Below, piece by piece: positions 5,363 to 16,223 of a stretch of 32,242 nt of DNA (position 1 is its first letter; each line of letters opens with the position of its first letter). Location of the stretch: NCBI GenBank assembly GCA_011052255.1, contig DRJJ01000157.1, positions 1 to 32,242 on the forward strand, given 5' to 3'. Source of the DNA: Gammaproteobacteria bacterium. Its GTDB lineage: Bacteria > Pseudomonadota > Gammaproteobacteria > DRJJ01. The notes beneath the pieces were generated by a model. The model was given only the letters and a program-made list of their open reading frames with translations, did not search any database and had not been told where the DNA came from. Position numbers and translations under genes: made by a program.

Positions 5363-7384
5363 ATGATGAAACTGACAGTCCAGAATAAATTATTCACAGG
5401 CTTTGCTGTAGTGCTGGTGCTTGTCGCACTGGTGTCAATCAACAACTATATCAAGATGGTCGCAAACAGCAACATTGAGCATCGTCTGTTGAAAGTACGC
5501 ATGCCAACGGTGATGGCCGGTATGCAGCTGGTCGATGGTATCCACCTCTCTCTGGCCGGGTTGCGCGGCTACATGATTCTGGGTAAAGACCCGGCCAAGG
5601 CTGATAAACTCAAGGCTGAACGTCAGCGTGGCTGGGTTCTAATCGACACAGCCCTGGCGGAAATGGACGAGTTTGCCAATAATTGGACTGACCCAAAAAA
5701 TATCGAGATGTTGAACCAGATGAAGGGCCTGGTGGAGCAGTTCCGTACCGCCCAGCAGGAAGTGGAAGACATCTCCCATACACCTGCAAACATCCCTGCT
5801 CTGAATCTGCTGCTGACCGAGGCTGCACCACGGGCTGCGAAAATTCTCGGTGCGGTTAGTGTCATCATTGATGAAGAGTCCACGCTGGATGCCACCCCGG
5901 AACGCAAAAAGCTATTGAAGTTGCTGGCCGACAGTCGTGGTTCCTTTGCTGTGGGCCTGGCCAATATTCGCGCCTTCTTGCTATCAGGCGATACAAAGTT
6001 TGCGAATAACTTTCAGGCCAAATGGAAGGTAAACGAGGCACGCTACAAAGAACTTCTGGGCATGACTGGCCTGTTTAATTCTACCCAGGCCCAGGCATGG
6101 GATACCTATAAAAGCGTGCGTGCCGAGTTTGTACCGCTGCCTGACAAAATGTTTGAGCTGCGCAGCGGCAAAGACTGGAACCTGGCCAACTACTGGTTAG
6201 GCACCAAGGCGGCACCCAGGGCCGGTGCCATTATGCGCATCCTCAAGGACATGCGCGCCTCGCAGGATAACCTGGCTGCAACAGACGAAGCATTGCTGGC
6301 AAGCGAATTCACCTCGATGAAAACCGTGATGATTATCGGCACGCTAATCGCCCTGGGCATAGGTGTGTTGGTTTCTGTTTTCATCAGCCGTATGATCACC
6401 GTACCGTTGAAAGCAGTAGTGGCTCGCGCCAAGGCTGTTGCCGGTGGCGATCTCACCGGTGCTGCCCTGGAGTCAAAAGGACATGATGAGCTGGCCGAGT
6501 TAAGCGGCGCGATTAACGACATGAATAGCAGTCTGCGGGACGTTGTTGAACGGATTACGGGCTCGGCGCAACATATAGGCAGTTCTTCCGAGGAGCTCTC
6601 GGCCATCACCGAGCAGACCAGCCAGAGTATCTACGAGCAGCAATCGCAGACCGAGCAGGTGGCCACGGCGATGAACGAGATGAGTGCCACGGTGCAGGAG
6701 GTGAGCAAGAACATCACCGGCACAGCACAGGCTGCTGAAGAAGCCAACAAGGAAACGATCGAGGGTCGCAAGGTGGTAGACGAAGCCATACAGGCCATTG
6801 AGCAACTTGCCGGGCAGATTGAAAACGCGTCGTCTGTGATACACCAGCTGGAACAGGACAGCGAAAATATCAGTGCGGTCATGGACGTTATTCGCGGTGT
6901 CGCCGAGCAGACTAACTTGCTGGCACTGAACGCCGCCATTGAGGCAGCCCGCGCCGGTGAGCAGGGCCGTGGCTTCGCGGTAGTGGCTGACGAGGTGCGT
7001 ACCCTGGCTGGCCGCACCCAGCAGTCCACGGAAGAAATCAACCAGGTGATCGAAAAACTCCAGGCCGGTTCCCGCAAGGCCGTAGAGGTAATGAACAAGA
7101 GTCGTGAAGAAGCCCAGTCCGTGGTCGATCACGCCACCAATGCGGGCACATCACTATCAGTGATTTCCTCGGCGGTGGAGCGCATCAACGGCATGAGTGC
7201 CCAGATCGCCAGCGCGGCGGAGCAGCAGAGCGCCACAGCCGAGGAGATCAATCGCAACATAACGAACATCACCGAAATGGCTAATGAGACCACCGCCGGG
7301 GCACAGCAAACGTCCACCGCCAGTGGTGACCTGGCCCGTCTGGGCACCGAGCTACAGGGATTGGTTGGGCAGTTCAAGGTTTGA
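5363..7384 (+). CDS. Methyl-accepting chemotaxis protein with a large (~290 aa) helical periplasmic sensor, a HAMP domain and an MA signalling domain
   Basis: The ORF is 673 aa with an SD-like GAGGA upstream of ATGATG. It has an N-terminal TM helix ([16 protein letters not shown]), a second TM ([20 protein letters not shown]) and a HAMP region ([19 protein letters not shown]...[13 protein letters not shown]). The hairpin tip [35 protein letters not shown] is highly conserved. Confidence 0.95.
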
Positions 7385-7423: not shown

Positions 7424-8108
7424 ATGTCAACGCTAATGCAATCGGTCGATGAACGCACACGCCTCGCGGGTACAAACCGACTGGAAGTTTTGTTGTTCAG
7501 CCTGCGGGGTCATACCATACCCGTGATCAACCTGCCTAAATACTGCGGTATCCCGGTTGAGGAAAGCCGAGCATCATGATCGTTACCGAATACAACAAGC
7601 ACGTGCAGGGCTTTCTGGTGCATTCGGTAGACAGCATCATGCGTCTGGCGTGGGAAGACGTCAAAGTGCCGCCGTCCATGGTGGGCAACCAACACGGCGG
7701 CCTGGTTACCGCTGTGACCGAGTTGGCAGACAAAATCCTGATTATGATCATGGATGTCGAGAAGGTGTTGTCCGAGGCGGCAGGCTTGTACGATGACGAT
7801 ACAGTCTACGACGGGATCTCCTCTGTGGGTGATCAGAGCATGACAGTCCTGTACGTCGATGATTCCAGTGTAGCTCGACTGACCGGCTGCAATGCATTTT
7901 GACGGATATCGAAATGCCGGAGATGGATGGTTATGCCCTGACCCGCAAGATAAAAGACGATGATCGTTTCAAGGATCTTCCCGTCATCATGCATTCGTCT
8001 CTGAGTGCCGAGGCGAATCAGGCTCTGGGTGCGGGTGCAGATGCCTAAGTGGCAAAATTCGAACCGCGAGAGCTGGCCGCGACCCTGATGAAGATGATGC
8101 CTGCCTAA
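7424..8108 (+). pseudogene. cheV: Decayed cheV (CheW-like domain + receiver), with two internal deletions, a frameshift and an in-frame TAA
   Basis: My translation covers three frames. Frame 2 from the ATG at 7424 gives MSTLMQSVDERTRLAGTNRLEVLLFSL|RGHTIPVINLPKYCGIPVEE and then stops at 7577-7579. Frame 1 gives (P)SIMIVTEYNKHVQGFLVHSVDSIMRLAWEDVKVPP...DVEKVLSEA...VLYVDDSSVAR and then stops at 7900-7902. Frame 3 from about 7896 gives ILTDIEMPEMDGYALTRKIKDDDRFKDLPVIMHSSLSAEANQALGAGADA, then TAA (8046-8048), then VAKFEPRELAATLMKMMPA and a stop at 8106-8108. All segments are collinear with CheV proteins, but the FGINVFKVREV region and receiver beta1-beta3 are missing. The total is ~685 nt against ~930 nt expected. 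Confidence 0.8.
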
Positions 8109-8220
8109 GAAGATAAATGCCTGGGGCGCTCTGATCAGTGTACGGTATTCAAAGCAGATAACCACACCGCGGCTGTAGCGATACAGTTCGTGATATGTAG
8201 AGATTAACCAAGAGGATTGC

Positions 8221-8808
8221 ATGACAGAAAAGCAGAAAGACTATTTTACCAGCCGTGAGGCTGCCGAGCGACTGGATGTGTCTGTGAGCACCATTCAGCT
8301 TTGGACAAATAATGGTCTTTTACGTGCATGGACTACAGCAGGAGGACATCGGCGTATTGTGCGCAGTTCAGTCGAGGAAATACTAGGCCAGCAGCAGGCT
8401 GTTTCAAGTGTACAAAAACCGGATGAGCAATTGTCGATTGTTGTTGTGGAAGATAATGCACAACAGCTACGGCTGTATGAAAAACAATTTCTTGCCTGGC
8501 ACATGAATACGCGGGTGGTCATGGCCAAAGATGGTTATCAAGGCCTGATCAAGATTGGCAGCACCTTACCCGACGTCATTATCACCGATTTAAAGATGCC
8601 CAATATGGATGGCTTTCAGATGATCAGGGCGCTGAAAGAGTTGCCAGAGTTAGAGCACAGCATAATTATTGTTGTGAGTGGTCTTAAGGAAGACGAAGTA
8701 AAGACCAGGGGTGGATTACCGGAGGGCGTGTACTTGTTTACCAAACCGATCCCTTTCAAAAACCTGGAAACCCTGATACGTGAGAAAACACGTACAAAGG
8801 TTGCGTAA
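8221..8808 (+). CDS. Response regulator with an N-terminal excisionase/MerR-type HTH (HTH_17-like) and a C-terminal receiver domain
   Basis: The ORF is 195 aa with SD AGAGGA 5 nt upstream. The N-terminus (FTSREAAERLDVSVSTIQLWTNNGLLRAWTTAGGHRRIVRSSVEEIL) fits the excisionase-family HTH pattern. The receiver signatures are VVVEDN, VIITDLKMPNMDG (phospho-Asp), VVSG and FTKP. Confidence 0.85.
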   Translation: MTEKQKDYFTSREAAERLDVSVSTIQLWTNNGLLRAWTTAGGHRRIVRSSVEEILGQQQAVSSVQKPDEQLSIVVVEDNAQQLRLYEKQFLAWHMNTRVVMAKDGYQGLIKIGSTLPDVIITDLKMPNMDGFQMIRALKELPELEHSIIIVVSGLKEDEVKTRGGLPEGVYLFTKPIPFKNLETLIREKTRTKVA

Positions 8809-8856: not shown

Positions 8857-11800
8857 ATGGCGGCATCCAGCGGATCGGGTCTGGCAGTAAAACTGGCTGC
8901 ATTGCAGGTGAACTTTAAGCAACAGCTTTCCGGCAAGCTTGCTGAAATTGAGCGCCTGTGGGCGGGCTGTTATCAGAATAATGCAAGCAGCGCCAATCTG
9001 GTGGATCTTCATCGCATGGTTCACAGCCTGGCCGGTTCCAGTGCTACCTTCGGTGCAGTGGCCGTGAGTCTCGTTGCGCGAGAAGTAGAACAGACGCTGA
9101 AACTTCTATTAAAAGAGCCTGGTCAGGCGTCGCCCTTTTCCAGTGAAATACAACAACAATTAGATGAATTGTTACCCAGGCTAAGGCAGGCTGCTGAAGA
9201 ATGGCAGCCTTCAAACATTTTCTCTATTCGACCCGGCGAATCAAAAGATCAGTGTGCTGGTAATCTTGTTTATCTGGTGGAAGATGATGAGCTTTTAGCG
9301 GCAGATCTGGTTGCAAAGCTTGAACAAGCCAACTATCGAGTGCAGCACTTTACTGAATTGAGTGGTTTGGAAGCCGCCTGTGAAAAGGAAATCCCGGTGG
9401 CAATCATCATGGATATGGTTTTCAGGGATGGTAATATTGTGGGTGCGGAGCATATTCCCAGAATAGTAGACAAGCTACACATCTCTCCGCTGGTGATCTT
9501 CATTTCAGAGCATGATGAAATCGAAGCCCGTCTTGCTGCAGTGCGCGCGGGTTCCCACCGCTTTTTCTGTAAACCACTGAAGGTGAATAAACTGATCCGG
9601 GCTCTGGACGGGTTGACGGCGCGGCAGGAAAAAACGCCCTATCGGGTATTGCTTATCGATGATGACGAAACCTTACTGGAGTACTGTGCGACTGTGCTGC
9701 GCGAAGCAGGTATGGATGTTGAAACTCTGTCCAACCCTCTGCAGGGTCTGAAAGTATTGACCGAGTTTAAACCGGATGTTGTCATCATGGATGTATATAT
9801 GTCTGAATGTTCAGGGCCTGAGCTGGCCCAGGTAATTCGCCAGGATGATGCGTGGGTCATGGTTCCTGTCATATTTTTATCCGTCGAATCGGATCTCAAT
9901 CGTCAACTGGCAGCCTTGAATCTTGGCGGTGACGACTTCCTGGTAAAACCCGTGGAGGCAGGTCATCTGGTGGCAGTGGTTACTGCCAGGGCAAAACGGG
10001 CACGCAGGACCATTCAACTCAATAAAGATCTGAAAAATGCGCTGAGAGAAAGCAAGTTCCAGCTTTTCACCATGGATCAGCATGACATTGTCAGTACGAC
10101 CGATGTCACCGGCCGAATTATCAGTGTGAATGACAAGTTCTGTGAAATCAGCGGCTACAGTCGCGAAGAATTGCTGGGGCAGAATCACCGCATACTCAAG
10201 TCAGGTTACCATCCCGACTCATTTTATAAAGATTTGTGGAACACCATCACCCAGGGCAAGGTTTGGCATGGCACTATATGTAACTGTAGAAGGGATGGCA
10301 ACGAATACTGGGTGGAATCCACCATCGTTCCCTTTCTGGATAATAACGGAAAACCCTATAAATATGTTCATGCCCGCACGGACATTACTGCACTCAGACA
10401 AAGTGAGGAACGCCTGCACAGTAGCCAGGTATTTGCCAACATCGGTACCTGGGACTGGCATATCAGGACAGGCGAGATGTACTGGTCGGTACTCGTTGGC
10501 CCGATGCTCGGTTATCAGCAAGGCGACCCTGATACCACCTACGAAAACTTCCTCTTCGCTGTGCATCCTGATGACCGCCAAATGGTGGAGAAGGCGGTGA
10601 ACAGCTGCATTGAGCATGGCTGCGAATTTAACATCGAATACCGGATAGTGTGGCCGGATGGCAGTGTGCATTGGCTGCAGGCAGGTGGCGATGTCCTGCG
10701 CACCGAGGCAGGTGAGCCTCTGCATATGCTGGGTGTGATTCAGGACATCAGTATTCGCAAGTGTGCCGAACGGGACCTGATCAAGACTCGCGATGAGGCA
10801 GAATATGCCAACCGTGCCAAGTCACAATTTCTCTCCAGTATGAGCCATGAGTTACGTACACCTATGAATGCCATCATAGGTTTTAGTCAGCTTTTAAGAA
10901 TCGATAACGATCAGCCTTTGAATGAATCCCAGCAGGAAAATGTCGATGAGATACTCAAGGCGAGTAACCATCTGCTGGAACTCATTAACGAGGTGCTGGA
11001 TCTGGCCAGGATCGAGACAGGGCGTATTGACCTTTCTATCGAGACAGTCGTGCCTGGTGAGGTCATAGCTGAATCCCTGCAGCTGATTACGCCGTTAGCA
11101 CAGAAACGTGGCATTGAAATCAGCTTGACTCTTGATGGGGCTAATATTACGTTTGAACAAGTGCTGCAGCAACATAATGCAGTACGGGCAGATCGTACCC
11201 GGCTCAAGCAAGTATTGCTTAACCTGTTGAGTAATGCGGTCAAATACAATTGTGAAAATGGCAAGCTCATCATAGCCTGTAACAACACCGAAAATAACCA
11301 GACCCGGATCAGCATTTCCGATACGGGTACCGGCCTTACCATGGAGCAGCAGTCTCAGTTATTCAAGGTCTTTAATCGACTGGGGGCGGAACAGTCAAAT
11401 ATTGAAGGCACGGGTGTTGGTCTGGTAATCACCAGGAATATCGTTGAACTCATGGGTGGTAGCATCGGTGTAGAGAGTCAGTCAGGCAAGGGCAGCACCT
11501 TCTGGATCGAATTACCAAATGCTACCTTGCATTCTGCACAAAAGAAGGAGTCTGATAAAAAGGGAGCCATGCAAGTACATACTATCATCAGACCTGAATA
11601 CAAGCATACCGTGCTCTATATAGAAGACAATCCCGCAAACCTGCGGCTGGTAGCTCAATTGCTGGGACGTTTGCCTGATATTCATATGTGGAGCGCCCAT
11701 GAACCGTTACTGGGTCTTGAACTGGCGGTGGAACATAACCCCGACCTGATTTTGCTGGATATTAATCTGCCGGGCATGAATGGTTTTGAGGTGCTTAACC

Positions 11801-11979
11801 AGCTTCGACAGAGGGAAGCAACCCGTGAAACACCGGTTATCGCCATTAGCGCCAACGCCATGCCTGGAGATATTAAAAAGGGGTTGGAAGCAGGTTTTGA
11901 TGAATACATCACCAAACCGATTGATGTTGAGGCCCTGTTGCAGGCTTTGGATACTATGCTGACAGGTAATAACAAATAA
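8857..11979 (+). CDS. Soluble hybrid sensor histidine kinase: Hpt-REC-REC-PAS-PAS-HisKA-HATPase_c-REC
   Basis: The ORF is 1040 aa with SD GAGAGAGGA upstream and no hydrophobic TM segment. The Hpt motif is HRMVHSLAGSSATFG (H56, codon 9022-9024). REC1 has LVEDDE...IIMDMVF...FCKP, and REC2 has LLIDDDE...VIMDVYM...LVKP. Two PAS modules are present (GQNHRILKSGYH...; IGTWDWHIRTGEMYWS). The H-box is FLSSMSHELRTPMNAI (H664, codon 10846-10848), the N-box LLNLLSNAVKYN, G1 DTGTGL and G2 GTGVGLVITRNIVELMGG. The C-terminal REC has LYIEDNPANLRL...LLDINLPGMNG...ITKP. Confidence 0.92.
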   Translation: MAASSGSGLAVKLAALQVNFKQQLSGKLAEIERLWAGCYQNNASSANLVDLHRMVHSLAGSSATFGAVAVSLVAREVEQTLKLLLKEPGQASPFSSEIQQQLDELLPRLRQAAEEWQPSNIFSIRPGESKDQCAGNLVYLVEDDELLAADLVAKLEQANYRVQHFTELSGLEAACEKEIPVAIIMDMVFRDGNIVGAEHIPRIVDKLHISPLVIFISEHDEIEARLAAVRAGSHRFFCKPLKVNKLIRALDGLTARQEKTPYRVLLIDDDETLLEYCATVLREAGMDVETLSNPLQGLKVLTEFKPDVVIMDVYMSECSGPELAQVIRQDDAWVMVPVIFLSVESDLNRQLAALNLGGDDFLVKPVEAGHLVAVVTARAKRARRTIQLNKDLKNALRESKFQLFTMDQHDIVSTTDVTGRIISVNDKFCEISGYSREELLGQNHRILKSGYHPDSFYKDLWNTITQGKVWHGTICNCRRDGNEYWVESTIVPFLDNNGKPYKYVHARTDITALRQSEERLHSSQVFANIGTWDWHIRTGEMYWSVLVGPMLGYQQGDPDTTYENFLFAVHPDDRQMVEKAVNSCIEHGCEFNIEYRIVWPDGSVHWLQAGGDVLRTEAGEPLHMLGVIQDISIRKCAERDLIKTRDEAEYANRAKSQFLSSMSHELRTPMNAIIGFSQLLRIDNDQPLNESQQENVDEILKASNHLLELINEVLDLARIETGRIDLSIETVVPGEVIAESLQLITPLAQKRGIEISLTLDGANITFEQVLQQHNAVRADRTRLKQVLLNLLSNAVKYNCENGKLIIACNNTENNQTRISISDTGTGLTMEQQSQLFKVFNRLGAEQSNIEGTGVGLVITRNIVELMGGSIGVESQSGKGSTFWIELPNATLHSAQKKESDKKGAMQVHTIIRPEYKHTVLYIEDNPANLRLVAQLLGRLPDIHMWSAHEPLLGLELAVEHNPDLILLDINLPGMNGFEVLNQLRQREATRETPVIAISANAMPGDIKKGLEAGFDEYITKPIDVEALLQALDTMLTGNNK

Positions 11980-11984
11980 AAGAC

Positions 11985-12878
11985 ATGAATACAATATCTG
12001 ATCATCTATACAGGTGGTGCATATGGGCAGTCTTGCTTCTGGGTTTTGACATGCTAGTGGCTTGTTCACAAGATGACAATTCGAGAACTGTAAAGATCCT
12101 TAAGATTGCGGTACTGCCTGATCAGAGTGAGTCGCAACTGCACAGTAAATATCAGCCCTTGCAAGATTATATAAAATCTCGCACTGGCCTGAATTCTACG
12201 TTGCTGATACCTGCATCGTACAAAGAGTTGCTGCAATGGTTTGATGACAAGCATATTGATATGGCATTGTTTGGTGGCGTTACTTACGTAAAGGCTCATT
12301 TGCAGAGTAACGCAATTCCGTTAGTAATACGCGATGTGGATGGTCGTTTCAGAAGTATCGCGATAGTGAGCGCGAATAATCCTGCGAGCAGTTTACAGGA
12401 CATTAAAGGTGCTTCACTGGCATTTGGATCTCGGCTCTCTACCTCTGGCCACTTAATGCCAAGATACTTTTTACGGCAGAATAATATCATTCCTGAAGAA
12501 TTTTTTAGCAAGATTCTATATTCTGGCGCTCACGACGTCACTGCCGAATGGGTTCGCGATGGAAAAGTGGAGGCTGGGTTAACCCATTCGGGCATCGCAA
12601 ACGAAATGTTCCTTGACGGACGATTAGGCAAGGATAAGGTTAAGGTTATCTGGAAATCTCCGCCTTTTGCTGATTATGTGTGGGCAGTGCAGCAAGACAT
12701 CAGTAAGCAGCAAAGAACTATGATTCGGGATACTTTTCTGTACATGAATCAAAATGATGAAGGCAAACTATTGCTACAAAGCCTCGGCGCAAATTATTAC
12801 ATCCCGGCAGGAAATGACGATTTTAGCAAGCTGGAGCAGATTATCCTGCAAATGGAGCAACATGGACATAAACAATGA
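11985..12878 (+). CDS. PhnD-family (phosphonate/phosphite-type) periplasmic substrate-binding lipoprotein, orphan with no transporter partners
   Basis: The ORF is 297 aa. It has a signal peptide with lipobox LVAC (Cys27). The body is collinear with PhnD-like binding proteins: LKIAVLPDQS...YQPLQDYI...IDMALFGGVTYV...LKGASLAFGSRLSTSGHLMPRYFL...YSGAHDVTAEWVRDGKVEAG...VIWKSPPFADYVWAV. It starts 5 bp after the upstream stop, and its stop overlaps the next ATG (ATGA at 12875-12878). Confidence 0.82.
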   Translation: MNTISDHLYRWCIWAVLLLGFDMLVACSQDDNSRTVKILKIAVLPDQSESQLHSKYQPLQDYIKSRTGLNSTLLIPASYKELLQWFDDKHIDMALFGGVTYVKAHLQSNAIPLVIRDVDGRFRSIAIVSANNPASSLQDIKGASLAFGSRLSTSGHLMPRYFLRQNNIIPEEFFSKILYSGAHDVTAEWVRDGKVEAGLTHSGIANEMFLDGRLGKDKVKVIWKSPPFADYVWAVQQDISKQQRTMIRDTFLYMNQNDEGKLLLQSLGANYYIPAGNDDFSKLEQIILQMEQHGHKQ

Positions 12879-15127
12879 GAGTACTGGATACTACACTGGA
12901 AAGAACACAAATTAACCGTAGCGTATACGGGTTACTGGGCATGGTGGTTATTGTCTTCGTAACGATCCTCATTGTGCTCCAGTTACAACAGAATGAAATT
13001 CGGAATAGAGATGCTTTAACTAATGATTACCACCTGGCTATAAGTCTAAAGAGCCTGGCGCTACTTGGTGCAATTAATGCAACCAGAATATGGTTCCGTG
13101 ATCATAGTATTGAGTACAAAAATAAAACCACCACTTCAGAATATACTGTAATCGAGTCACAGAGACATACGGAATTCTCGGAAAGAGACAAAACAGGTGC
13201 GCTTAAGAACGAAATCGAGAAACTTGTTGATGAAATCAATGCGACTCAGAGGCAATATGCAGACCCTGAATTTACTTCTATCAGCTCATTACTGGAAAAG
13301 GCGAACAGGGAAGTTCAGGCTAATTTAAGCAAGATGCAATCTACAGGCAAATATGCCAGTAAAATAATTGATGATAGTGTAGAGCTATTAATCCCGGTCA
13401 TCCATCAGATGCAGCGTCTGCATAAGCATGCTTACCAGCAAATGCGGCTGTCAATAGATGATTTTCAGCGGGTCAAAGAGATTCAAATTATTAGTCTGAT
13501 TATTGTGCTGGTGATAGTTGGCCTGTTTGGCGTTATAAGGATGTTACGTCATGTTCGTCACACGCTAAAAAATCTGACTAAGACACAGAATGAACTGCAA
13601 GAACGAGAACAGAACTTTAGCTTGTTAACCCGTAACATGCAAGATGGGGTTCTTGTGAACTTTGAAGGCAAGCATGTTTTTGCAAATAAAAGTATGGCTA
13701 TGATGCTAGGTTATGAAAAACCAGAGGAACTAACTGGAACCAGGATCGAGGATATTGTGCACCCTGATGATGTAGATATGGTGTTAAGCCGATTTCGATC
13801 ACGAATGAAAGGAAACGAAAAGCCGAGTCAATACGAAACCAGATTTATTACCAAAGCGGGTGATGTGTTAACTGTCGATCTCAGTGCCGCAAAGACCTTA
13901 TGGAAGGGAAGGCCTGCCGGGATGGTTACAGTCAGGGATATTACCGAGCGTAAAAAAGATGAGCAGGCACTACAGCAATTCAAGTATACGCTGGATCAAA
14001 CTCTTGATTGTGTATATCTGTTCGATGCCGAGAGTCTTCTCTTTATCTATGCAAATGAAGGTGCTATGCGGCAGATAGGTTATACTCGCGATGAACTGTT
14101 AGCCTTGCACCCTTATGACATCAAGCCGGAATATACCGAACAACAATTTCGCGATATTATCACTCTGCTACTGAATGGCGAGCAGTCATCACTCAATTTC
14201 GAGACTATCCATCAGCATAAGAATGGCCACTGTGTACCAGTGGAGGTTTTTATACAATTAATTTCATCGGAAGCGGGCGTGGCGCGCTTTATAGCCATTG
14301 TGCGTGATATTACCGATCGTAAGCAGGCAGAAACTGAACTCGACAAACATCGTGAGCATCTCGAAGAATTGGTTAAGGAACGCACTGTTGACTTGATGAC
14401 TACCCGTGATGAGGCTGAAAAATCCAATGCCGCCAAATCCGAGTTTCTCTCCCGCATGAGCCATGAATTGCGCACACCCCTGAATGCTATACTCGGGTTT
14501 GGCCAAATACTTGAGATGGATGCCGAGGGGTTTAGCGACACTCAGCGAGCTAACGTTAAAGAGATTACTGATGCCGGCCAACACCTGTTGGAACTTATTA
14601 ATGAAGTGCTGGATCTGGCCAAAATCGAATCCGGTAAGCTGGATATTTCTCTGGAGATAGTTTCTGTCGATGATCTGTTGCAGCAGTGTCTTACTATGAT
14701 ACAACCTCAGGCAAAAGCATGCCAGCTTGAAATCATTGATCTCATCAGTAAGCAGGGATATTACGTACAGACCGACTTCACTCGTGCAAAACAGGTGCTG
14801 TTAAATCTTTTATCCAATGCGGTGAAATACAACTGCTGCCAGGGACGTATTACGCTGACTAGCGAGGTTGTAGACAAAAATCGACTTCGTATTTTTGTTA
14901 CAGATATGGGGAGCGGTTTGACGGAAGCGGAAATAGAAAGATTGTTTACGCCTTTTGAACGCATCGATTCTACGAATAATATTGAAGGTACAGGTATTGG
15001 TCTTGTTATCACCAAACACCTGATTGAACTCATGGGCGGTACAATTGGTGTTAAGAGCACACAGGGTGAAGGCAGTACCTTTTGGGTGGAGTTCGGACTG
15101 GCACGGGCACTGTCTGCTGGTGCATAA
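12875..15127 (+). CDS. Membrane sensor histidine kinase: TM, ~165-aa periplasmic helical region, TM, PAS-PAS-HisKA-HATPase_c
   Basis: The ORF is 750 aa. TM1 is LLGMVVIVFVTILIVLQL and TM2 is IISLIIVLVIVGLFGVI. Two PAS modules each end in the typical RDITERK/RDITDRK linker. The H-box is FLSRMSHELRTPLNAI (H530, codon 14462-14464), the N-box LLNLLSNAVKYN, G1 DMGSGL and G2 GTGIGLVITKHLIELMGG. There is no receiver or Hpt domain. Confidence 0.92.
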   Translation: MRVLDTTLERTQINRSVYGLLGMVVIVFVTILIVLQLQQNEIRNRDALTNDYHLAISLKSLALLGAINATRIWFRDHSIEYKNKTTTSEYTVIESQRHTEFSERDKTGALKNEIEKLVDEINATQRQYADPEFTSISSLLEKANREVQANLSKMQSTGKYASKIIDDSVELLIPVIHQMQRLHKHAYQQMRLSIDDFQRVKEIQIISLIIVLVIVGLFGVIRMLRHVRHTLKNLTKTQNELQEREQNFSLLTRNMQDGVLVNFEGKHVFANKSMAMMLGYEKPEELTGTRIEDIVHPDDVDMVLSRFRSRMKGNEKPSQYETRFITKAGDVLTVDLSAAKTLWKGRPAGMVTVRDITERKKDEQALQQFKYTLDQTLDCVYLFDAESLLFIYANEGAMRQIGYTRDELLALHPYDIKPEYTEQQFRDIITLLLNGEQSSLNFETIHQHKNGHCVPVEVFIQLISSEAGVARFIAIVRDITDRKQAETELDKHREHLEELVKERTVDLMTTRDEAEKSNAAKSEFLSRMSHELRTPLNAILGFGQILEMDAEGFSDTQRANVKEITDAGQHLLELINEVLDLAKIESGKLDISLEIVSVDDLLQQCLTMIQPQAKACQLEIIDLISKQGYYVQTDFTRAKQVLLNLLSNAVKYNCCQGRITLTSEVVDKNRLRIFVTDMGSGLTEAEIERLFTPFERIDSTNNIEGTGIGLVITKHLIELMGGTIGVKSTQGEGSTFWVEFGLARALSAGA

Positions 15128-15137
15128 GACGAAAAGC

Positions 15138-16223
15138 ATGAGCGAAATCAACAATCAAATGAATGTCGATCCAGGAAAGGCCAGTATCCTGGTTGTGGAT
15201 GATGAGGCTGCCAATGTCAGGCTTCTGGAAAAAATGCTTGCGACGAGAGGGTATAGCAATGTGGTTTGTACCTTGGATCCAGATCAGGTCTTGCCACTGT
15301 ACCAGAAATATAAAAGTGACTTGATTCTACTGGATATCAATATGCCGAAGCTGGATGGTTATGGCGTGATGGGCCAACTTAATAAGCTGACGAAAGGGTG
15401 TCCACCACCCATCCTGATATTAACAGCACAGCATGACCAGAGCTCTCGCCAGCGTGCACTGGATAGTGGGGCTCGTGATTATGTCACGAAACCTTTCGAT
15501 GCCGATGAGTTGTTGTCTCGCGTTCGCAATTTGCTGGAAGTTCAGATGGCGCAAAAGTTTATGCATCGTCAAAATGAAATCCTTGAACAGAAGGTGCGGG
15601 AACGAACGCAGGCTATGCATGACACACGCTTGCAGGTTGTGCGTTGTCTAGGTCGAGCGGCAGAGTACCGCGACAATGAAACCGGCCTGCATATCATCCG
15701 TATGAGTAAGATGGCGGTGGTGATAGGCTCGGCTGCAGGCATGGATGATGAACAGTGTGATCTGCTGTTAAATGCAGCCCCGATGCACGATATCGGCAAG
15801 ATTGGCATACCGGATCATATACTACTTAAGCCCGACAAGTTTGAACCCGAAGAATGGATGATTATGCAAACTCACGTTCAGATTGGCGCGGATATTCTTT
15901 CAGGAGACAATTCGGATTTAATGACCATGGCACGTGATATCGCCATTACTCACCATGAAAAATGGAATGGCAAGGGTTACCCCAACGGTCTTGAAGGCGA
16001 GGCAATACCGCTGACCGGTCGTATCACCGCACTGGCCGATGTATTTGATGCGCTGACTTCTGAGCGGCCTTACAAAAAGGCCTGGCCGGTGGAGAAGGCC
16101 GTGGAATTAATAAAAGAAGAAAGCGCAAAGCATTTTGATCCCATGCTTGTTGAGATTTTACTTGAAAGGCTTCCTGAGATTATCAAAATCAAGGAAAAAT
16201 ACGCCGAACCGGTTAACAAATAA
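15138..16223 (+). CDS. RpfG-type response regulator: receiver + HD-GYP c-di-GMP phosphodiesterase domain
   Basis: I place the start at MSEINNQ (ATG 15138-15140), 10 bp after the kinase stop. The ORF-track start at 15024 lies inside the kinase gene. REC signatures are ILVVDDEAANV, LILLDINMPKLDG and YVTKP. The HD-GYP signatures are PMHDIGKIGIPD and ITHHEKWNGKGYPNGL. Confidence 0.92.
   Translation: MSEINNQMNVDPGKASILVVDDEAANVRLLEKMLATRGYSNVVCTLDPDQVLPLYQKYKSDLILLDINMPKLDGYGVMGQLNKLTKGCPPPILILTAQHDQSSRQRALDSGARDYVTKPFDADELLSRVRNLLEVQMAQKFMHRQNEILEQKVRERTQAMHDTRLQVVRCLGRAAEYRDNETGLHIIRMSKMAVVIGSAAGMDDEQCDLLLNAAPMHDIGKIGIPDHILLKPDKFEPEEWMIMQTHVQIGADILSGDNSDLMTMARDIAITHHEKWNGKGYPNGLEGEAIPLTGRITALADVFDALTSERPYKKAWPVEKAVELIKEESAKHFDPMLVEILLERLPEIIKIKEKYAEPVNK

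Follow-up and report, generated by a model that had tools for sequence, protein, structure and literature searches.

Few sensors that depend on a separate binding protein have been characterised, and the rules by which their two halves dock are poorly understood. One bipartite receptor of this kind, XAC2383-XAC2382 of Xanthomonas citri, was reportedly described by Teixeira et al. in 2018: XAC2383 is said to be a PhnD-fold binding protein that prefers phosphate-containing anions and that is co-transcribed with, and controls, a membrane signalling protein, XAC2382, which reportedly has a periplasmic Cache domain and a diguanylate cyclase output, and homologous pairs are said to differ in their cytoplasmic outputs. 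We take PDB entries 5ub3-5ub7 to be the XAC2383 structures. In the AioX-AioS system, a transporter-less protein of the Phosphonate-bd family serves as the ligand input of a sensor kinase, whose gene adjoins and is co-transcribed with that of the binding protein, and the sensor domain of AioS has been described in a review as sCache-like. Here we present a gene pair from contig DRJJ01000157.1 of a gammaproteobacterium (GenBank assembly GCA_011052255.1), which is a metagenomic contig of low coverage (3.9x), apparently gammaproteobacterial in its gene content, and is called the window below, meaning the whole analysed stretch of 32,242 nt. According to profile comparisons and structure predictions, the two genes probably encode a bipartite periplasmic sensor, consisting of a PhnD1/PtxB-like lipoprotein and a histidine kinase with a four-helix bundle as its periplasmic domain. 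In the literature we found no characterised member of this exact pairing, and no paper on the binding-protein clade or on the sensor domain. What is new is most likely a large unannotated clade of such bipartite sensors with a predicted new docking domain, with about 150 or more loci in species-representative genomes, while the kind of device is already known.

A lipoprotein gene and a kinase gene kept together

The features of the pair, all on the forward strand, are as follows (AF2, AlphaFold2).

11985-12878 (+): PhnD1/PtxB-like substrate-binding lipoprotein of 297 aa, proposed as the part of the sensor that binds the ligand (Pfam, TIGR01098, AF2, Foldseek)
12054-12065 (+): lipobox L-V-A-C, residues 24-27, with Cys27 as the predicted lipidation site (sequence)
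12875-12878 (+): ATGA overlap between the binding-protein stop and the kinase start (sequence)
12875-15127 (+): membrane sensor histidine kinase of 750 aa (Pfam, transmembrane segments, translation)
12986-13483 (+): periplasmic sensor domain of the kinase, residues ~38-203, a predicted four-helix bundle and proposed docking site (AF2, Foldseek, profile)
13028-13033 (+): conserved Y52-H53 in helix 1, ~15 residues above the first transmembrane segment (family alignment)
13406-13423 (+): conserved Q178-x-x-R181-L182-H183 in helix 4, ~20-25 residues before the second transmembrane segment (family alignment)

Both open reading frames (ORFs) and their overlap, in which the TGA stop and the ATG start share ATGA (12870-12880 reads ...AAACAATGAGAG), are present as the original prediction had placed them, and its assignment of the first gene product to the PhnD family, as a lipoprotein with the lipobox LVAC, was also borne out. 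The protein matched Pfam Phosphonate-bd PF12974 with 207.7 bits (cutoff 27; E=2.3e-61) over profile positions 1-242 of 242, and passed the cutoff of TIGR01098 (178 vs 112). It stayed under the cutoffs of the PhnD equivalog TIGR03431 (149.6 bits vs 261.1) and of a model named "putative selenate SBP" (200 vs 250; SBP, substrate-binding protein). The AF2 model of the binding protein (pLDDT 92.5, pTM 0.83) was best matched in Foldseek by 7s6g, 5lq5 and PtxB, with TM-scores of 0.84-0.92 and an rmsd of 1.8 A to closed liganded forms. The best fits are closed liganded PhnD1 of Synechococcus (7s6g, with phosphate) and of Prochlorococcus (5lq5, with phosphite), together with PtxB, followed by ArrX, E. 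coli PhnD, AioX (rank 31 and below) and XAC2383 (rank 39), and sequence searches put the relatives in the same order. Taken together, AF2, Foldseek and the alignments assign to the protein the predicted fold of type II periplasmic binding proteins, and the S-T-S...H oxyanion motif is conserved in it.

Related loci were collected by scanning one genome per species, which gave 80 loci with binding-protein identities of 37-60%. Their hosts, mostly marine, belong to Alpha- and Gammaproteobacteria, Nitrosomonas, Nitrospinae, Planctomycetes (Stieleria, Rhodopirellula), Acidobacteria, Marinimicrobia and Flavobacteriales. The 4-nt overlap with a downstream PAS-kinase gene recurs among binding-protein homologues of 57-65% identity. 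In 77 of the 79 loci that could be scored, the next gene starts between -11 and +31 nt from the binding-protein stop, and an overlap of 1-11 nt was seen in 36 of the 79, being 4 nt in 25 of those. Among 69 partner proteins analysed with Pfam, 49 had HisKA and HATPase domains, 3 were HWE/HisKA_2 kinases and 14 contained GGDEF (13 of them also EAL); receiver domains occurred in 16. About 68 of the 69 share an N-terminal plan of a transmembrane segment, ~155-170 residues and a second transmembrane segment, and a profile seeded with the N-terminal domain of the window kinase reached 69 of 69 partners by iteration 2. When this profile was run against all 5456 ORFs of 86 loci, it found one ORF per locus, always directly after the binding-protein gene, with truncated copies at contig ends included among these matches. 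Thus, the binding-protein clade is paired strictly one-to-one with a single periplasmic domain family, whatever the cytoplasmic output, which gives strong comparative support to the earlier reading of the two proteins as co-sensors.

The same data bear on the explanation that adjacency and overlap reflect incidental operon packing with no functional link. Overlaps of 4 nt are common between same-strand bacterial genes in operons and by themselves prove little. However, adjacency kept in 77 of 79 homologous loci across phyla, while the flanking genes other than the pair vary, is beyond chance; the co-occurrence of the two domains is exclusive; and the 37-60% identities in varied contexts argue against one recently transferred element. 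We therefore regard incidental packing as highly improbable. At two of the related loci, further binding-protein and kinase modules were observed: in L005 (4871-8004) a Peripla_BP_6 (LivJ-like) gene abuts a dCache-HAMP kinase gene beside the PhnD-like pair, and in L003 (12017-15178) a hybrid kinase carries a fused ANF_receptor/Peripla_BP_6 domain. These suggest multi-input phosphorelay clusters built from such modules.

A second alternative is that the lipoprotein is an ordinary transport SBP, whose ABC components are encoded elsewhere, and that the kinase regulates uptake or is merely co-transcribed, with possible moonlighting of the kind known for MBP with Tar. The closest solved relatives (PhnD1, PtxB, PhnD) are all transport proteins, the cutoff of a transporter-SBP subfamily (TIGR01098) was passed, and only 32 kb of the genome is in view. 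Against this, no ABC permease or ATPase gene was found among the ORFs of the 32-kb window, as originally predicted, and none adjoins the pair in any of the 86 related loci (ABC-ATPase-like ORFs occur in 5 of the 86, never adjacent to it). As a control, the nearest relatives that do lie in ABC operons, with 31-35% identity and plasmid-borne, were found in the arrangements ATPase-permease-SBP-selD in one case and SBP-phnC-phnE in another. The strict pairing with one sensor-domain family, GGDEF-EAL partners included, and the score under the PhnD equivalog cutoff also argue against a transport role, which we consider quite unlikely for this protein. Of the refuting conditions named in the original prediction, none that could be examined came true: the Phosphonate-bd score is strong, and ABC transporter genes are missing from the window and from beside the related pairs.

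Ligand pocket and periplasmic sensor domain

Pocket correspondences were determined by reading HMMER alignments against the published pockets of PhnD1, PtxB, PhnD and AioX, a comparison of the kind that the original prediction had called for. D46 aligns with the Asp that holds the capping Tyr, Y79 with Y55, Y46 and Y44 of three reference proteins, T100 with T65, and F122 with F90 of Pm_PhnD, while S152-T153-S154 forms the STS motif, H183 is the conserved His, and D230-Y231 align with the hydrogen-bond-acceptor Asp and the capping Tyr. H201 stands in for an Asn that is present in 21 of 25 family members. All of these pocket positions are conserved family-wide. L151 occupies the position where PhnD1 has a water-holding Ser. 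The alignments indicate a small, closed pocket of XO3/XO4 type, like that of PhnD1 and PtxB, and the earlier guess of a small oxyanion or phosphonate-like compound is thereby narrowed: our best guess for the ligand is a phosphite-, phosphate- or methylphosphonate-like small anion. In solved relatives that share this pocket, affinities are about micromolar for phosphite and tens of micromolar for phosphate or methylphosphonate.

Two other ligand types were considered and rejected. The mature binding protein has no Cys besides that of the lipobox, and the position of AioX Cys106 corresponds to the invariant Gly97 (an equivalence inferred through the published PhnD Gly65 correspondence), so AioX-type arsenite sensing was rejected for absence of the Cys. 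Binding of aminoethylphosphonate in the E. coli manner was rejected because the cap residues differ: the D/T/E cap is absent, and the cap positions are Y231 and D46, as in PtxB and PhnD1. At two distant loci, the pair lies near an ATP-sulfurylase gene (L089, 12027-13211) and a PstS-like (PBP_like_2) gene (L090, 15261-16145), respectively. These are isolated hints to sulfur or phosphorus oxyanions, and are inconsistent across loci.

The kinase is composed of a first transmembrane segment, a periplasmic domain, a second transmembrane segment, two PAS domains, HisKA and HATPase_c, with neither a receiver nor a HAMP domain according to Pfam, and its H-box is intact in the translation (SHELRTPLN). 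Hydrophobic segments at residues 17-35 and 203-221 place the periplasmic loop at about residues 38-203, which corresponds to nt 12986-13483. For this stretch the original prediction of a helical region of ~165 aa without a recognisable domain stood as to its limits and its lack of a Pfam family, and can now be refined to a predicted four-helix bundle. No Pfam match was obtained for kinase residues 1-240, even at E up to 10, with neither 4HB_MCP_1 nor TarH detected in the sensor domain, and no NCBIfam family was found for it; PF24820 matched in 4 partner proteins and was absent from 10 N-terminal regions scanned. A protein search with the kinase N-terminus alone found nothing. The domain diverges quickly, so that an exhaustive search with a single sequence recovered no more than 45 clusters. 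Comparison with the 4HB domain of a chemoreceptor encoded in the window indicated no relation (hhalign probability 0.7%).

AF2 prediction of kinase residues 1-246, from an alignment of 11 sequences, gave an all-helical model (pLDDT 85) with helices 3-86, 103-127, 131-157, 162-169 and 172-245 and a disordered loop at 87-102. In this model, helix 3-86 runs from the first transmembrane segment into periplasmic helix 1, and helix 172-245 leads from helix 4 through the second transmembrane segment into the cytoplasm. The top Foldseek matches were Tar 2lig (first), Vc1313 8bsb, PcaY_PP 6s33, KinB 4llc and NarQ 5jgp, with probabilities of 0.9-1.0, target-normalised TM-scores of 0.57-0.68 and every E above 0.1. 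We thus predict that the sensor domain folds as a four-helix bundle; homology to any named family could not be demonstrated. Across 67 family sequences, conservation is concentrated at two sites, both in the membrane-proximal part of the bundle: Y52 (69%) and H53 (90%) in helix 1, and Q178 (97%), R181 (72%), L182 (88%) and H183 (85%) in helix 4.

This patch can also be explained in another way, namely that the bundle itself binds the signal, as NarX and NarQ bind nitrate and Tar binds aspartate, and that the lipoprotein is an accessory modulator or scaffold similar to CpxP. NarX-type sensors bind anions near the membrane on helices 1 and 4; strong conservation in the bundle is limited to polar or charged residues (H53, Q178, R181 and H183), which lie on these same two helices and are close to the membrane, and NarQ and Tar are among the Foldseek matches. 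On the other hand, the complete and family-wide oxyanion pocket argues for ligand binding in the lipoprotein, which is also far more conserved than the bundle (mean identities 44% and 16%), as is expected if the binding protein carries the ligand specificity. Direct binding by the bundle is therefore, in our opinion, unlikely, and we favour the reading in which the lipoprotein is the receptor and the bundle its docking partner.

The anchoring of the lipoprotein bears on such docking. Cys27 sits 11 residues ahead of the first beta-strand, and the lipobox Cys is kept in 24 of 25 close homologues. Across the wider family, a lipobox-like motif was found in at least 53 of 81 members (the pattern missed a few more), and the distance from the Cys to the first strand is always 10-15 residues, with a median of 11. 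Family members without the Cys have a hydrophobic N-terminus, some with AxA-type cleavage sites and some with apparently uncleaved anchors; these make up roughly a quarter to a third of the more distant members, for example L023, L027, L035, L044, L057, L061 and L068. Hence the tethering mode appears from the sequences to differ between members, with a roughly constant spacing to the first strand. With so short a tether, the binding protein would sit alongside the half of the bundle nearest the membrane, which also carries the conserved patch.

Gene cluster, proposed signal route and its weighing

Around the pair, the hybrid-kinase, binding-protein, sensor-kinase and response-regulator genes are tightly packed on one strand, with successive gaps of 5, -4 and 10 nt, the first of these separating the end of the hybrid-protein gene from the start of the binding-protein gene. 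The other members of the cluster are as follows.

8221-8808 (+): regulator with a MerR-type helix-turn-helix and a receiver domain, at the head of the cluster (Pfam)
8857-11979 (+): soluble hybrid protein, Hpt-REC-REC-PAS-PAS-HisKA-HATPase-REC (Pfam)
15138-16223 (+): REC-HD-GYP response regulator of the cyclic di-GMP (c-di-GMP) phosphodiesterase type (Pfam Response_reg 2.8e-27, HD_5 8.3e-32)

The REC-HD-GYP gene begins 10 nt past the kinase stop, and its translation contains both the HD and the GYP motifs; this regulator is likely the phosphoacceptor and output of the kinase. The hybrid protein is a probable partner in a branched phosphorelay. Upstream of the pair, L003, L005 and L088 encode hybrid kinases of like type, and L088 also has a MerR-REC gene in the matching position, so that MerR-REC and hybrid-kinase genes precede the pair there as in the window. 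Other neighbours in the window include accBC and aroQ, and a promoter and terminator scan gave no excess over shuffled expectation.

Several further observations were made around the cluster. G+C content is 41-45% over the binding-protein and kinase genes (12001-15000), compared to 47-50% in the upstream hybrid kinase and 52-55% in the downstream accC/accB region, a dip that could reflect horizontal acquisition or merely composition. The signalling region is headed by a 673-aa chemoreceptor (4HB_MCP_1, HAMP, MCPsignal; 5363-7384, + strand), located upstream of what look like cheV remnants: three consecutive short ORFs at 7424-8048 (+ strand) of 51, 108 and 44 aa, which resemble pieces of one cheV-like gene (CheW plus receiver domain), the 108-aa ORF corresponding to the C-terminal half of the CheW profile and the 44-aa ORF being a weak receiver match. 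These fragments suggest frameshifts or deletions, from either a pseudogene or sequencing error in this 3.9x contig. A 129-aa ORF on the opposite strand (7833-8222, -) has no family match and is probably spurious.

Domain content, predicted folds, pocket conservation, the lack of a nearby transporter and the strict pairing are shown by the data above. Physical contact between the two proteins of the pair, the ligand, the phosphoacceptor and the way in which regulation runs we infer as follows. The lipoprotein, held at the membrane by its tether of ~11 residues, would capture a small XO3/XO4 oxyanion and close around it. In its liganded (or unliganded) form it would then dock on the four-helix bundle of the kinase, perhaps by way of the membrane-proximal patch formed by Y52-H53 and Q178-R181-L182-H183. 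The signal could pass through the second transmembrane segment, predicted as one continuous helix into the cytoplasm, and the two PAS domains to the HisKA/HATPase core, and the kinase, which has no receiver of its own, may phosphorylate the adjacent REC-HD-GYP protein (leading to c-di-GMP hydrolysis), the receiver domains of the Hpt-hybrid protein, or both.

A number of points weigh against this interpretation. The residue at position +2 of most family lipoproteins is Ser, which under the E. coli sorting rule directs a lipoprotein to the outer membrane and thus away from the kinase; this rule is not established for the organisms in question. The four-helix-bundle assignment depends on the 11-sequence model and on structural matches that all have E>0.1. 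The correlation of pairwise distances between binding proteins and sensor domains (r=0.73, Mantel p=0.001), which speaks for the pairing, is confounded by shared phylogeny. A 32-kb window leaves room for an ABC transporter elsewhere in the genome. With regard to the ligand, pocket conservation does not fix its identity and is a lead rather than proof: AioX has most of the PhnD pocket residues, yet its ligand is arsenite, and TtrS and ThsS detect tetrathionate and thiosulfate through PhnD-like domains. Gene neighbourhoods of the related loci contained no consistent metabolic genes and gave no clue to the ligand. Taking these points together with the strict pairing, the conserved pocket and the lack of adjacent transporter genes, we still hold a bipartite sensor to be the probable function of the pair.

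Within this clade, a single binding-protein family goes strictly with a single periplasmic domain, not annotated before, and the output varies among kinase, hybrid kinase and GGDEF-EAL. This makes the clade a test bed for how a helical sensor domain reads a closed binding protein, and it also offers modular biosensors for small oxyanions. With phosphite or phosphate as its ligand, the pair would be a direct extracellular phosphorus sensor tied to c-di-GMP, and such a sensor would have a bearing on how bacteria of phosphorus-limited seas decide on biofilm formation and motility. The Pst-PhoU-PhoR route senses transport flux. We tentatively propose, as a possibility that is for now rather doubtful, that the pair represents a widespread unnamed sensor class of marine and sediment bacteria, in which a membrane-tethered PhnD1/PtxB-like receptor reports external phosphite or phosphate through the new, dedicated four-helix-bundle docking domain directly into c-di-GMP turnover and multi-kinase phosphorelays, independently of Pst-PhoU-PhoR.

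Comparison with known systems

The proteins most similar to the window lipoprotein in both sequence and structure are cyanobacterial PhnD1 (7s6g, 5lq5) and PtxB (5o2j, 5jvb), which have the same first-shell pocket of cap-partner Asp, Tyr, S-T-S, His and Asp-Tyr cap. Unlike the window protein, these two are parts of ABC importers (PhnDCE and PtxABC) and are not paired with a sensor. PhnD proper differs as well, since in the window no phnC or phnE lies alongside, the equivalog cutoff was missed and the D/T/E cap is absent.

Among sensors, TtrS and ThsS resemble the proposed system in using a PhnD-like module as the periplasmic input of a kinase for an oxyanion. In those proteins the module is fused into the kinase, whereas the window has a separate lipoprotein and a kinase with no PF12974 domain and with a helical domain of its own. 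MBP-Tar, TorT-TorS and PstS-CtpL are alike in that the periplasmic helical bundle of a transmembrane receptor reads a binding protein that carries its ligand, as we propose here, but their binding proteins come from other families and, except for TorT, also serve transporters; the bundle has no detectable sequence homology to Tar or TorS. Membership in the TorT-TorS family was rejected, with TIGR02956 scoring 230 against a cutoff of 676 over residues 477-745 only, and with a binding protein that belongs to PF12974. The general architecture of Tar/NarX/PcaY-type sensors, an antiparallel four-helix bundle of ~150-170 aa with helices 1 and 4 continuous with the transmembrane segments, is also that of the AF2 model.

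The original prediction had called the pair AioX/AioS-like. As in the AioX, ArxX and ArrX systems, the binding-protein gene is adjacent to and co-oriented with the kinase gene and there is no transporter, and similarity of the binding protein is weak to AioX (E=4e-7) and moderate to ArrX (1.6e-17). Where AioX has its arsenite-binding Cys106, the window protein has Gly97, the kinase sensor domain is helical in the model, unlike that of AioS (which was compared by its description only), and in contrast to AioX-AioS-AioR, no AtoC- or CitB-type regulator and no aioBA, arx or arr genes lie nearby. Hence the likeness holds for the manner of working, and fails for the arsenite site, the fold of the kinase sensor domain, and AioR and aioBA. 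XAC2383-XAC2382 shares with the window pair a PhnD-fold binding-protein gene that adjoins or overlaps the gene of a membrane signalling protein. XAC2383 is remote from the window protein, with a family-profile match of E=1e-6 over part of the protein and 16% identity in Foldseek, and its partner XAC2382 is said to contain a Cache domain, while the periplasmic domain of the window kinase is all-helical in the AF2 model and has no Cache match in Pfam. The outputs also differ, being reportedly a diguanylate cyclase in XAC2382 and, in the window, a kinase proposed to feed an HD-GYP regulator. The pair is placed outside both the AioX and the XAC2383 families because it lacks the Cys, a partner domain of Cache type and the operons that go with those systems; by analogy, it would function as the same kind of device as AioX-AioS and XAC2383-XAC2382.

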